A stretch of 64,000 bases of DNA, taken from contig OZ244653.1 of the NCBI GenBank assembly GCA_965218795.1, positions 4,864,001 through 4,928,000 on the forward strand, given 5' to 3'. This document shows, piece by piece, positions 42,530 through 47,367 of the stretch. Position numbers and translations under genes: made by a program. The stretch is from a bacterium. GTDB taxonomy: Bacteria; UBA8248; JACPRG01; G963555815. Position 1 is the stretch's first letter, and every line of letters begins with the position of its first letter. Under the pieces are notes generated by a model. It saw nothing but the letters and a program-made list of their open reading frames with translations. It was not told the origin of the DNA and searched no databases.

Positions 42530-42700
42530 CGGCGCACCAGACCGTCAAATCCGCAGGCGCTCAACGAACGCGATTCCGTATGTCGCCGGCACGGGTTGCA
42601 AATGGCGCGGCCTCTCCGTCGGCTTGGCAACTGGCATACCATCTACATGCGGCGGGCGCTGGGCGGGCAGACGCCGACTGGCGGTGATGGCGCCGGCGAG
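42530..42700 (+). mobile_element. IS5-family transposase N-terminal remnant
   Basis: Frameshifted SNPQALN / YVAGTGCKWRGL / GNWHTIYMR. It ends at the IS3 inverted repeat. Confidence 0.6.
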
Positions 42701-42705
42701 TGGAT

Positions 42706-43746
42706 TTACCCCGTTTCAGTGGACAGTTTATGGCTGTCACCTCCAGCCCTGAGTTGGGCGACAGCCGGTGGACGTAAAGTCTTCCCCAAGATCGGTGGAT
42801 AGGATATCGCTGGAGGGGATATCTTTCCCTTTGGCTCTCCGCTCCAGCAAGCACCGGGCACCCCTCGGGCCGGACGATGAACGTTGCGCACTGCACCCGG
42901 CGTTGCCTTCGCCGCGTCGCGTTCGTAGTCGTTGGGGCTGAGGTAACCCAGGGCGGAGTGCCGGCGGCGTGGGTTGTACCAGCCTTCGATGAATTGGAAG
43001 ATCGCCATGCGCGCCTCGGCCTGGGTACGGAACGAACGCCGGTCGATGAGCTCGCACTCCAGCGTGGCGAAAAAGCTCTCGGCCATGGCGTTGTCATAGC
43101 AGTCGCCGGCCGACCCGGTCGAGGGAAGCACCCCCATCTCCCGGCACCGCTTGCCGAAGGCGAGCGAAGTGTACTGCGTTCCCCGGTCCGAATGATGCAC
43201 GACCCCATAGGGCCGGCGCTGTCCCAGCGCCATGTTGAGCGCCCCGAGCACCAGCTCGGTGCGAAGATGATGGGCCATGCACCACCCTACGATCCGGCGG
43301 CTGAACACGTCGAGCACGATGGCCAGGTACACGAACCCCGCCCAGGTCGGCACGTAGGTGATGTCGGCCACCCAGATTCGGTCCGGCCCATCGGCCTGGA
43401 ACTGGCGTTCGACCCGGTCCGGGACCGCACGATGACTCGGGTCCAGACGCGTGGTGCGCGTGCCCCGGCGCCGGCTCACCCCGGCCAAGCCCGCCTCGCG
43501 CATCAGACGAGCTACCCGTTTGCGGCTCACCCGACGCCCGTTGGCCGTCAACTCGGCATGCATCCGAGGCGCCCCGTAGGTGCCGCCAGATGCCTCGTGG
43601 ATGGCCCGGATCGTGCCCCCCAACGCCTCGTCGTGCTTCGCACGATTGGAACGCCCACGGCTTCGCCACGTGTAGTACCCGCTGGAGGAGACACCCAGCA
43701 CCCGGCACATCGTGGCCACCCGATGACAGGCCTGGTTCGCCTTCAC
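42706..43746 (-). CDS. IS3 family transposase OrfB (integrase core)
   Basis: YGAPRM, WVADITY, HHSDRGTQY, DNAMAESFF and YNPRRRHSALG motifs. Confidence 0.92.
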   Translation of the reverse strand: MKANQACHRVATMCRVLGVSSSGYYTWRSRGRSNRAKHDEALGGTIRAIHEASGGTYGAPRMHAELTANGRRVSRKRVARLMREAGLAGVSRRRGTRTTRLDPSHRAVPDRVERQFQADGPDRIWVADITYVPTWAGFVYLAIVLDVFSRRIVGWCMAHHLRTELVLGALNMALGQRRPYGVVHHSDRGTQYTSLAFGKRCREMGVLPSTGSAGDCYDNAMAESFFATLECELIDRRSFRTQAEARMAIFQFIEGWYNPRRRHSALGYLSPNDYERDAAKATPGAVRNVHRPARGVPGACWSGEPKGKISPPAISYPPILGKTLRPPAVAQLRAGGDSHKLSTETG

Positions 43747-43806
43747 GAGCCCGAAGACCTCCCCGGCACCGAGCCGGTCTCCCGTGCGAACCAGACCGCG
43801 GCTTTC

Positions 43807-45172
43807 CTAAGAAACTGCCTCCGCACCCTCCTGCAGAACATACCCCAGAGAAGCGGCCCGTCGGCGAAGATTCTTCACCACACGCTGACGATAACGCTCT
43901 TCATAGTATGAAGCGCCGGGATCCACATACTTCTGCCCATATCGCAGCGTGTTGTATAGCAGGACCGCAATCTTTCGGGCGGTGGCAGTCACCGCCTTGG
44001 CCTTGCCGATCCGCGCCGACAATCGACGATAGAACGCTCCGAGCGCGGTCTCGGTCCTGCCCACCGCCACCGCCGCCAGACGCAGCACCGCAGCGGCCCG
44101 ATTCGACGTACGGCGCGTTCTCGAGGCCAGAACGCGTCCACCGGAGATCTTGTTCGCCGGCGCCAATGCAAGCCACGACGTGAAGTGCTTCGCGCTCGGC
44201 CATCGAGACATATCCGTCCCACATTCGGCGATGATCTTCAGCGCAAGGTAGGGGCCGACTCCGTGAATCTGGGTCAGGTCTACGCCGAGCAACGCATACA
44301 GGGCGCCTCGTACGTCGAAGTTCAATCCGTTGGGCTGACGCGCCTTGTGCCGAGGCGCGGGCAGCGCCGCCGACGGCTCATCGACGCCATCACTGAGGCG
44401 ACCCAGGACCGCCTCGATTTCCTGGTCGCAGCGAGCCACTTGTGCTTGATACACATCGTACAGCTCCAGGGCCTGTCTCAGCGCAAAGACGTGCTCGCGT
44501 TGGTAATGCCCGACAAGCGCTTCACGGATCGTCTCGCGTGAGGATTTACAACGGCTGTCGCGCCATGCCGCGAGTAAGTCGGGGTCGACGACCCCCGACG
44601 CGATCGCCCGAATCATCCGCAGCCCCGTCACCCCCGTGATGTCGGACACAACATGGTGAAGCTGAACATTCATCTGGGTCAGCGCCTTTTGCATGTGTTG
44701 AATGTGCGCCGCTGCATAGTCGCAGGAGGCGCTCGCGCTGTCTCAGGTAAGACCGCAACTCTGCGATCCCGCGAGTGGGGCGAAAACTGGCTCGCAACAA
44801 ACCGTACTGGTGCAGCTGCTGCAGCCACTGCGCATCGTTCACGTCACTCTTGCGTCCCGGAACCGTCTTCACCTCCCGAGCGTTCACCACGATCACTTCC
44901 AATCCATGCTCTTGAAGGATCTCGAACAACGGGATCCAGTAAACGCCCGTGGACTCCATCGCGACCGTCTCGACCCCAGCCTCTTCGAACCAGTCGGCAA
45001 GACGCTGCAGGTCGTTGGTAAAGGTCTTGAAGGTGCGTACGGGCTCGTCAGTACCCTTCGATCCCACCGCGGCCACATGGATTCGCGACCCAATGTCCAC
45101 CCCCGCCGCATTGGGATGGACCACCGTCATGCCTCGGGAAGAACGTTTCGTCCTGCGCTTTGTACTCGCCAT
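43807..45172 (-). pseudogene. IS110 DEDD recombinase with a +1 frameshift near 44722
   Basis: GVDIG, AMESTGVYW and KSDVNDAQWL in the first ORF; IHGVG and SGG (catalytic Ser) in the second. One extra C breaks LL-DYAAAHIQHMQKAL. Confidence 0.9.
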
Positions 45173-45199
45173 GGGTCCCTCTCCTTAATCATGTTGGGA

Positions 45200-45352
45200 G
45201 ATGTCCGAGAGGCGGGACGGCGGTTCCCATCATTTTCCTAATCGGGCTCGTCGATCGACGGCGCCACAGTCAAGTCCGCAGCAGTCCCTGAACCACGTTT
45301 TTTGCGGGGTCATGATCCTCCAAAAAGCTGACGGTTGCTCCCCCCGGACATC
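45200..45352 (-). ncRNA. Predicted IS110 bridge RNA
   Basis: Closing stem GATGTCCGGGGGG/CCTCTCGGACATC. Internal segments TTAGGAA and GTCCCG match the two element ends and CAAAAAA matches the target A-run. TAGAAT (-10-like) lies just upstream. Confidence 0.7.
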
Positions 45353-45411
45353 GCACATTCTACGCTGCCCACCAAGTTTCCATTCGTCCAGGAAGACGCC
45401 GTCTTGTCCCG

Positions 45412-45665
45412 TTTTTTAGGATCTCCCGCTCTTCGCGAAGCTGACGGACCTCTCGACGAAGCCGCCGCAGCTCCTCGAGCTCCGTACTTGTCAGACCGTC
45501 CTCACGACGGCCCTCGTCGCGGTCGGCCTGGCGCACCCAGTTGCGAATCACCGAAGCAGAACACTCGAACTCCCGGGCCAGCTCCCCGGGCGTACGGCCC
45601 GAGCGAACCAACTCGACCATCTGGCGCCGCTACTCCGGCGCGTAGGGCGAATGAGTCTTTCGCAT
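45412..45665 (-). pseudogene. IS3 OrfA 5' part (premature TAG, split by IS110)
   Basis: MRKTHSPYAPE*RRQMVELVRSGRTPGELAREFECS...LREEREILK. Confidence 0.85.
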
Positions 45666-45748
45666 CTGAACACCTCCTGCGCACACTCTGAAGGTGTCCA
45701 CGAAAACGGGTCAACTCCAGCGTGCCGCGCACGGCGAAGCCGTCGGTG

Positions 45749-47367
45749 TCAGCCGTTGAGAAGATCGTTCGCAACCTGCCGCGCTTCGTCCAGAGTTTCG
45801 ACGATGTGCTCCTCCGGTACGTGCTGCAGGATACCGAGGGTGTGAAGGGTGTTCGCAACGGAGCCCGAGGCGCCCATTACGATGAACCCGATCTGCTCTC
45901 TCGTGGCGACGTCCATGAGCTGCTCTATCACCATGGCAGCGCTGTCGTCGAGATATGTGGCGCCGGAGAAATCAAAGATGACGACCTCGTGGTCCTTGAT
46001 GTCCGCGCTGATCACGCCCACCAGCTTGTAGGAGGATGCGACGGTGAAGCTCCCCTTGAGCGCCACCATGCCGACCCGCGCCGCGTACGGGTCCGCCGTG
46101 GCCATGTCCTCCCGTTCGGAGAAGAACGTCCGGTCCAGCAGTGGCACGGAAACCACGCTGTCGAGTTCCAAACCTTCCAGTTGCCGCGCATGGGCCATTC
46201 CTCCGGCGATCAGCCCGATCGCTACCGCGGTTACCAGATCGACGAACACCGTAAGGCCCAGCGTCATCAGCATGACGAAAAGGTGTTCGCGCCGGATGCG
46301 GTGGACACGGGCGAGAAGACGCCAGTCGATGATGTCCCAGCTGACTTTCATCAGGACGCCGGCGAGAGCGGCAAGAGGGATCGGCTCGACAGACTGGCCG
46401 AGGCCCAGCACCAGCGCCAGCGTAAGGATCGCCCCCAATGCGCCCGATACCCGGGTGAGTCCGCCGGCGCGTATGTTGGTCACGGTACCCACGGTGGCCC
46501 CGGCGCCGGGCAGCCCCCCGAAGAGTCCCGCAACCATGTTTCCGATACCCTGACCGACCAGCTCCCGATCCGGGTTGTGGCGCGTACCGGTCAGCGAATC
46601 GGCTATCAGGGAGGTGAGGAGGCTGTCCACGGAACCGAGCAGGGCGAGAATGAGCGCCGGCTGCACTGCGTGCAACAGGAAGCCGACGGACGGCAGCCCC
46701 AACTGCACGCCCGGCAGGCTGGTCGGCACCTGCCCGATGATCGGCGCATCGTTCAGCCACAGCACGCCCAGCAGCGTGCCGGCCATCAGCGCCGCAAGAG
46801 GAGCCGGCAGGAGTCTCGCCAGCCGACGGGGCCAGAGCACGCCAACCGCGAGAGTAACGGCGGCGATGGCGAAGGCGCTGAAGTTGATGTTGGCCACCGC
46901 CTCGGGCAACGCCCCGGCCGCGCGCCCATGGGTCCGCCCGGCGCGGTGGGCGCTCCGAGGAAGGGCATGGCCTGAATCAGCATGATGATGATGCCGACCC
47001 CGGACATGAATCCGGAGATCACCACGTACGGCGTGTAGACCACGAAGCGGCCGACCCTCGATATGCCCAGGAGCGCCTGCAGCAGACCGGCCAGAACGAC
47101 GATGGTCAGGGCTTCGGTCAGATCGGCCGCGTGCTTGGTGACGATGACCGCCAGAGCGACGGTTATTGGGCCTGTGGGGCCGGATATCTGGGACCGCGTG
47201 CCGCCGAACACCGATGCGAAAAAGCCGACCGCGATCGCACCGTACAGGCCGGCCGCCGGCCCCAGGCCCGACGCCACACCGAAGGCCAGCGAGATCGGCA
47301 GCGCCACCACCATGGAGGTGACGCCGCCGAAGATATCCCCGCGAAGCGTATTGAAGTCGTAGCCCAT
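45749..47367 (-). pseudogene. SulP/SLC26 anion transporter with STAS domain, frameshifted near 46920
   Basis: GDIFGGVT..VVALP, QISGPTGP, RELVGQGIGN and STAS DFSGATYLDDS. The frame break lies in a GCGCGCG run. Confidence 0.85.

Follow-up and report, generated by a model that had tools for sequence, protein, structure and literature searches.

The window analysed here is a stretch of 64,000 nucleotides (contig OZ244653.1, positions 4,864,001 to 4,928,000) from a bacterial genome that consists of one 5.17-Mb contig with 60.5% G+C. On its minus strand the window contains an insertion sequence (IS) of the IS110 family, a family of DEDD recombinase insertion sequences, which lies inside a second IS of the IS3 family. 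The IS110 element extends from 45411 to 43806 (1606 bp; limits read from the junctions and supported by the other genome copies and by public contigs) and lacks terminal inverted repeats, its tips CGGGAC... and ...CTTAGG not being inverted repeats of each other. The IS3 host is split into a left arm (45414..45719, minus strand), which carries the inverted repeat starting with TGGAG and orfA with the Pfam domain HTH_Tnp_1, and a right arm (42701..43803, minus strand), which carries the rest of the slippery run, orfB with the domains rve, HTH_21, rve_3 and rve_2, and the right inverted repeat.

At the left junction the sequence is CTAAAAAA|CGGG, at the right junction it is TTAGG|AAAGCC, and the sole sequence common to both flanks, at the junctions and in public contigs, is AA. 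Two uninterrupted IS3 copies of the same genome (E8 and E9) read GAGATCCTAAAAAAAGCCGCGGTCTGG across the insertion point, which is exactly the sequence obtained by joining the window flanks after the IS110 element and one AA are taken out. With six A's at the left junction and three at the right, compared with seven in the empty site, two nucleotides are present twice; they correspond to the left (45412..45413) and right (43804..43805) copies of an AA crossover core on the minus strand. In agreement with this, contigs from the public runs X1, X5 and X14 join 43803 directly to 45412; they lack the 1608 nt in between, and the joint is ambiguous by 2 nt. A preliminary description of this DNA had placed an IS110 element precisely in the A7G slippery run of an IS3 element and had stated that excision together with one AA restores CTA AAA AAA GCC, which is what the two natural empty copies read at the site. 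The junctions, the Pfam domains on both sides, the empty copies and the skipped 1608 nt bear out both statements; the coordinates given at that time, 43795-45425, enclose the element, but with about 11-14 nt of slack relative to 45411..43806.

The right end of the element (GTTTCTTAGG, 43806..43815, minus strand) places the stop codon TAG 1 nt from the tip. A 6-bp inverted pair is found at 45375-45380 and 43810-43815, reading GGAAAC here and AGAAAC in most relatives; AGAAAC lies 30-45 nt inside the left end and GTTTCT beside the right tip, an arrangement that, judged by eye, is kept across the clade. Contigs of the runs X5 and X8 join outside of the whole IS3::IS110 composite, at window positions 42701 and 45717. 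This joint skips 3015 nt but has 33 other letters in between, so it is not a simple empty site.

The usual -1 frameshift motif of the IS3 family is A AAA AAG. Removal of the IS110 element puts orfB in the -1 frame with respect to orfA; orfA then continues for 58 nt beyond the site, and the frame of orfB is open from 90 nt ahead of it. With the element in place, orfA and orfB are separated and the slippery heptamer is lost, so the host IS is unable to make the OrfAB transposase. The target is the orfA/orfB slippery run upstream of rve, not the codons around the DDE motif's second D. A fold of the 51 nt just after the site was no better than shuffled sequences (z = 0.05), and no frameshift-stimulating hairpin is claimed. 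Early in orfA of the host, an in-frame TAG is found at 45629-45631 on the minus strand; most related public contigs have another base at 45630, and the host IS3 copy therefore appears to decay.

The recombinase (transposase) gene of the IS110 element occupies 43807..45172 on the minus strand, where two open reading frames (ORFs), 44546..45172 and 43807..44694, carry IS110 domains. DEDD_Tnp_IS110 (PF01548, E = 8.1e-21) covers residues 23-154 of the first ORF, and Transposase_20 (PF02371) is found on the IS110 minus-strand ORFs with E = 5.9e-14. The division into two ORFs is due to an extra C at window position 44722 (query position 709), which breaks the gene in the window copy and in one other copy of the genome; in the remaining two copies, referred to below as C and D, the recombinase is intact with 454 amino acids in a 458-codon open stretch. 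The only relative in the Protein Data Bank (PDB) is the IS621 transposase (8wt6), which matches the C-terminal part with E = 1.9e-5. In this alignment, an SG pair of the recombinase coincides with an SG pair of the IS621 chain, and its serine is presumably the catalytic serine of the Transposase_20 domain.

Between the left tip and the recombinase gene lie 239 non-coding nucleotides (45173..45411, minus strand), which are predicted to encode a guide (bridge or seek) RNA. The prediction is based on an alignment and fold of 31 left ends of relatives, excluding L006, which contains N's. The aligned left ends fold into two domains. In this fold 97.2% of the cells are paired, whereas sliding the partners lowers the share to 33-49%; compensatory changes occur in 11 pairs, and doubly changed cells number 69, against at most 11 after sliding. 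G-U pairs are frequent and are seen only on the strand of the recombinase gene, indicating that this strand is the transcribed one. Upstream of the structured RNA, the -10-like box TAGAAT (45357..45362, minus strand) is a candidate promoter; TAnnnT-like boxes are visible in many of the 31 left ends, at places that do not line up from one sequence to the next. A Rfam scan of 42600-45800 found no bridge-RNA family, its only match being a small RNA at chance level (E = 0.28).

The first domain is an internal loop that is closed by a covarying stem and contains two putative target arms. The 5' arm, UCAGCUUUUU (45322..45331, minus strand), is complementary to the top strand of the A-run and the following GC and would act as the right-target guide, while the 3' arm, CAAAAAA (45298..45304, minus strand), has the sense of the left target and the AA core and would act as the left-target guide. 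The A6 run named as target guide in the preliminary description is this 3' arm, read from 45304 to 45298 on the 3' side of the first internal loop. The second domain contains the putative donor guide UUAGGAA (45235..45241, minus strand), which has the same sense as the right end of the element and the core. Two other candidates were rejected. In the window copy, the sequence GCUUUUUGGAGGAUC complements 13 of 15 top-strand bases of the target, but the AGGAUC part of it was discarded as a guide: it makes up the inner stem and loop, where the sequence stays similar (GGUGGAUC) in relatives that use different targets. On the 5' side of the second domain, a small hairpin was considered as a guide for the right donor; it does not track the left-end sequence.

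The genome contains four copies of the IS110 element, near 1.74, 2.71, 4.91 and 5.05 Mb (L001-L003 and the window copy), which share 99.94-100% identity and are all inserted at the same IS3 point. The window copy (A) and copy C are identical through both IS3 ends, which read TGGAG... and ...TCCA. Copy C is flanked on both sides of the IS3 ends by the 3-bp direct repeat CAT, whereas copy A has CGC on one side and CTC on the other. Copies B and D show no difference from A over 203 nt of the left flank, and on the right the flanks are identical to A for 73-226 nt (0 differences over 226 nt for B, 3 over 321 nt for D). Beyond the shared flank, B and D diverge from A by about 10%, and their IS3 arms are mosaic. 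Since the flanks are shared, the four copies count as one insertion event and no within-genome P value is given; a calculation of the odds that four of four copies would land in IS3 among the A7GC sites was dropped because the copies are not independent. The sequences suggest that a single insertion was likely multiplied later by movement of the IS3::IS110 composite and by recombination between IS3 copies. Copies A and C would then be the same composite at two loci, while B and D would represent the insertion inside otherwise divergent IS3 copies.

The same history could in principle account for the association as a whole, if an IS110 element had entered IS3 only once and the composite had since been spread by IS3 transposition, recombination and horizontal transfer. 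Association by descent holds within this genome, where A and C are the same composite, C with its CAT repeat, and where B and D combine identical proximal flanks with divergent distal arms. As an account of the relatives, it is highly improbable. Across them, the host OrfBs are of different families and only 25-72% identical to the window OrfB, many host ORFs are still open over 900-1100 nt, and near-identical IS110 copies reside in unrelated hosts, with up to six contexts per lineage. With such host identities and with unrelated hosts in a single cluster, one ancestral composite cannot explain the relatives.

The relatives come from a scan of one genome per species with the intact protein of this element, which yielded 80 loci with 62-92% protein identity. 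Together with three tandem second copies these make 83 relative copies, or 87 copies when the four copies of the window genome are included. They occur in Alpha-, Beta-, Gamma- and Deltaproteobacteria, Acidobacteriota, Verrucomicrobia, Chlorobiaceae, Aminicenantes and others. Of the 87 copies, 76 have CTTAGG at the end of the element and 82 have AA after it. The left flank ends in at least five A's in 67 of 87 copies (six A's in 49, seven in 12, five in 5 and eight in 1), the left end being cut by the contig in four copies. In the head-to-tail IS110 tandems of L015, L019 and L065, the right end of one copy and the left end of the next are separated by three A's instead of two.

Flanks were classified by tblastn against reference pieces, with families fixed by Pfam, and were merged at a flank likeness of at least 90%, which reduced the 83 relative copies to 74 flank clusters. 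Eight of these were too short to call, and 57 of the 66 classifiable clusters lie inside transposase genes of other ISs. IS3 OrfA and/or OrfB are directly adjacent on the same strand in 38 clusters, and one further cluster has a mixed IS1380-type and IS3 context. IS630-type genes, with HTH_32/33 upstream and DDE_3 downstream, are the host in 13 clusters, an IS1380-type gene (DDE_Tnp_1_4) in four and IS21 in one, while none of these contexts was found in nine. Insertions into IS genes are nearly always located at the A-run between the DNA-binding and the catalytic parts; in IS630 hosts this is the A-run that follows the end of HTH_33 and precedes DDE_3. Among 23 IS3 cases for which both flanks are available, the run that is left once one core copy is taken out is A6G (9) or A7G (8), and in the other six A6C (2), A8G, A4G, A6T and A7T. 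An ORF in the -1 frame follows the site in 17 of 25 IS3 cases and in 5 of 10 IS630 cases. The exceptions either differ by one A from sister copies (e.g., L040 compared with L056) or are decayed.

As a measure of independence, the 87 copies were grouped into 54 IS110 clusters at a nucleotide identity of at least 97%. One of these clusters is found in four contexts, one IS630 and three different IS3, another in six (four IS630-type, one non-IS and one tandem), and four others in two contexts each. The collection of copies and close homologues that the preliminary description had proposed as a check was thus carried out, and the flanks are enriched for IS3 orfA/orfB junctions (39 of 66 clusters, including the mixed one). 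The opposite outcome, a scatter over unrelated A-rich sites without IS3 enrichment, was not seen among the relatives. One pair of relatives on the same chromosome as L063-L071 shows reciprocal contexts, L068 with IS3 orfA on the left and an IS1380-type sequence on the right, and L070 with the reverse. Reciprocal recombination between two IS110 copies that reside in different host ISs would be expected to give this pattern.

Relatives are also present in 247 plasmid records. The PLSDB annotation hides pseudogenes, and plasmid contexts were therefore judged by tblastn and not from feature tables. In 11 complete plasmids, picked for taxonomic spread and not randomly, IS3 parts adjoin the element in nine, and a tenth has an IS3-like left-flank motif only. 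A relative with 65% identity (L089, from a Citrobacter plasmid) is common on plasmids, with 61 records in Citrobacter, 20 in Enterobacter and 7 in Klebsiella; the right side of L089 abuts an IS66 element instead of IS3 orfB. A near-full copy of this enterobacterial relative was found in 74 of 5426 complete Escherichia coli genomes, and in both of the two chromosomes that were inspected it lies between two truncated genes on the same strand, a transposase upstream and an IS3 family transposase downstream.

In lineages that reside in IS630, the 5' arm of the predicted guide reads ...AAGUUUUU, which is complementary to an A-run followed by CTT, as found in those genes. Four lineages have a 3' arm that is not an A-run (L007, CAGGGAAA; L032, UUCUCAAA; the L063 group, UGGCAAA; L051, CCAAGAAA), and in each of them the arm matches the lineage's own left flank and core (8/8, 7/8, 6-7/7 and 7/8 positions, respectively). 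The donor arm changes to UCAGGAA (L032, L039, L062 and L066) or AUAGGAA (L051) exactly where the right end of the element changes. Across independent lineages, the arm sequences change in step with both flanks and with the right end, and the stems remain the same. This behaviour speaks against a recognition by protein only, in which the recombinase itself would read the A-run and its flanks and the left-end structure would serve the control of expression. That explanation could draw on the lack of an identifiable guide for the left end of the element in the alignment and fold; it is nevertheless highly improbable, also in view of the RNA guidance demonstrated for IS621 (PMC11208160) and ISEc21 (PMC11187229).

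The covariation also bears on the view that any run of six to eight A's followed by G or C is hit, without tuning to IS3, and that copies inside ISs merely persist because they are without cost. The arms consist mostly of A and U, nine of the 66 relative clusters are at A-rich sites outside IS genes, and the window genome has 35 further A7GC sites, all of which would be compatible with such generic targeting followed by survivorship. It is nonetheless an unlikely explanation, as the non-A part of the 5' arm differs with the host family (GC for IS3, CUU for IS630) and the lineages without A-run arms (L007, the L063 group and L051) sit in matching sites of IS genes that are not A-runs. Furthermore, the share of 57 among 66 clusters is far above the share that such sites have in any genome. 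In the window genome, which holds 339 exact A7 runs, 37 A7GC sites and three CTA7GCC sites, only two A7 runs belong to IS3; two of the three CTA7GCC sites are the empty IS3 copies.

The combined evidence makes it highly probable that the window contains an RNA-guided IS110 element nested in IS3, whose guide arms specify the A7GC slippery site, the usual landing place of its lineage. The CAAAAAA arm, in target sense up to the AA core, and the GCUUUUU arm, the complement of the A-run and GC, would together specify approximately A7GC, that is, the -1 frameshift heptamer and the first following bases of IS3-type transposase genes, while UUAGGAA of the second domain would match the element's own right end. 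By analogy to IS621 and ISEc21, a circular copy of the element may have recombined with the target at the AA core through the DEDD/serine recombinase, which would result in a scarless insertion in one orientation. The lineage would generally use A-run slippery sites in the transposase genes of IS3 and IS630, and some sub-lineages would be retuned to other IS genes. The preliminary suggestion that the element is programmed for a constrained site of another IS family is supported mainly by the relatives, in which the guide arms correspond to the site and change along with it.

Several observations weigh against RNA-guided insertion at the slippery site. The four copies in the window genome are not independent and share one host context. 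The arms specify only about 10-11 nt, of which seven are A, and with 35 other A7GC sites unoccupied in the genome, targeting cannot be separated here from the loss of harmful insertions. The 3' arm begins with a C that is mismatched to the T of the target, and a guide for the left end of the element (the right donor) was not found in the alignment or the fold. A single-sequence fold of the window left end is no better than shuffled sequences (z = 0.30), so that the support for the structure comes from the alignment only. The recombinase gene of the window copy is frameshifted, and such a broken copy would need the enzyme in trans. No circle joint was found among the listed matches of public contigs, a source that cannot show its absence. 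Among the relatives, nine of the 66 clusters are outside recognised IS genes, for example beside genes for homoserine dehydrogenase, DUF599 and a Na/Pi-cotransporter; two of these nine are tandem second copies and one has flanks of only 127 nt. No -1 relation exists after removal of the element in 8 of 25 IS3 and 5 of 10 IS630 cases, and many relatives are from short contigs of metagenome-assembled genomes that are possibly chimeric (e.g., L006, L009 and L045).

A hyperparasitic lifestyle, in which the IS110 element disables another IS while using it as a safe harbour, is supported as a pattern of host contexts; the safe harbour itself, hitch-hiking with the host, and any benefit to the element are possible readings of this pattern. 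More tentatively, the cross-phylum lineage may be a dedicated parasite of other ISs, with guide arms that are tuned to the A-rich -1 frameshift heptamer and retuned upon a switch of host. Its spread would have two routes: the element's own recombinase, and carriage by the disabled host IS when composites transpose or IS copies recombine with one another. The frameshift heptamer would be hard to change for the transposase genes of IS3 and IS630. Retuning would be represented by the change from GC to CUU in the right arm for IS630, and by the change from an A-run to GGCAAA in the left arm for an IS3 variant without a long A-run and for an IS1380-type gene.

In the window genome, the IS3 subgroup with the most copies (E1-E7, seven full-length copies, e.g., 1637408-1638822) reads CTGGCAAAAGCT at the orfA/orfB junction. 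The long A-run is missing from these junctions, and none of the seven is occupied by IS110. A relative with the left arm UGGCAAA (L068 and L070, in another genome) sits in such an IS3 variant. Unoccupied junctions on the one hand and a relative with a fitting arm on the other could reflect escape and retuning.

The insertions of this lineage point to a second and much broader way for IS110-type elements to use other ISs as landing pads, with a target that is constrained by translation, i.e., by a programmed frameshift signal, and not by protein function or end recognition. Such a target travels with IS3 and IS630, which may explain the presence of one lineage across Proteobacteria, Acidobacteriota and other phyla, in a range that includes E. 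coli chromosomes and plasmids of Citrobacter, Klebsiella and Enterobacter. The relatives would provide natural examples of guide retuning in a bridge-RNA architecture with an arm order unlike that of IS621. Insertions of this kind also explain many of the pairs of 'incomplete IS3 transposase' pseudogenes in annotations, and they provide a case in which parasite-on-parasite dynamics among bacterial mobile elements can be tested.

Members of the IS110/IS1111 families with a specific target in another mobile element have precedents. IS1383 reportedly inserts into IS1384, and IS4321 and IS5075 are said to insert into the repeats of Tn21-family transposons. In these cases the targets are terminal inverted repeats, whereas the site described here is internal and is a translation-constrained part of a transposase gene. 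In the literature covered, which extended neither to supplementary target tables nor to ISfinder, no report was found of IS110 elements at frameshift or slippery sites, of an extension to IS630 or of a cross-phylum spread. The accessible parts of PMC7371123, PMC10214660, 10.64898/2026.08.14.744561 and 10.64898/2026.03.19.712850 contain nothing relevant to IS110 at slippery sites.

IS110 elements are RNA-guided and site-specific (PMC11208160). IS621 (Durrant et al. 2024, PMC11208160; PDB 8wt6) shares with the window element the combination of DEDD and Transposase_20 domains and a left-end RNA with target and donor loops. The loops of IS621 have two arms each, both covering a dinucleotide core, and insertion is scarless (PMC11208160). 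The two systems are very distant in sequence (E = 1.9e-5), and the recombinase has 454 amino acids here but 328 residues in the 8wt6 chain. IS621 has the core CT and targets repetitive extragenic palindromic (REP) elements (PMC11208160), in contrast to the core AA found here, and, as published, it is the 5' side of its loop that pairs with the bottom strand, whereas in the window element, compared by description, it is the 3' side.

IS1111-type seekRNA elements have the same arm order as the window element, with the top-strand match 5' of the bottom-strand match (PMC11187229). They differ by a non-coding region downstream of the gene and by subterminal inverted repeats near the tips (PMC11187229). 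The window element instead has its 239-nt non-coding region upstream of the gene and a stop codon 1 nt from the right tip, and the one inverted pair that it conserves consists of AGAAAC, about 30-45 nt into the left end, and GTTTCT at the right end.

The closest precedent is ISEc21, an element of the IS110 type that naturally targets a conserved segment within the transposase genes of the IS3 family, at DDE codons (Siddiquee et al. 2024, PMC11187229). As in the window element, the upstream non-coding region of ISEc21 provides the guide (seek) RNA and the target is in IS3; ISEc21 forms circles and is reprogrammable (PMC11187229). By the published description, the arm complementary to the bottom strand comes first in ISEc21, whereas the arm complementary to the top strand comes first here. 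The target of ISEc21 comprises the codons around the DDE motif's second D in IS3, in contrast to the orfA/orfB slippery run occupied in the window. In light of ISEc21, targeting of the slippery site represents a new form of such nesting and not a new principle.

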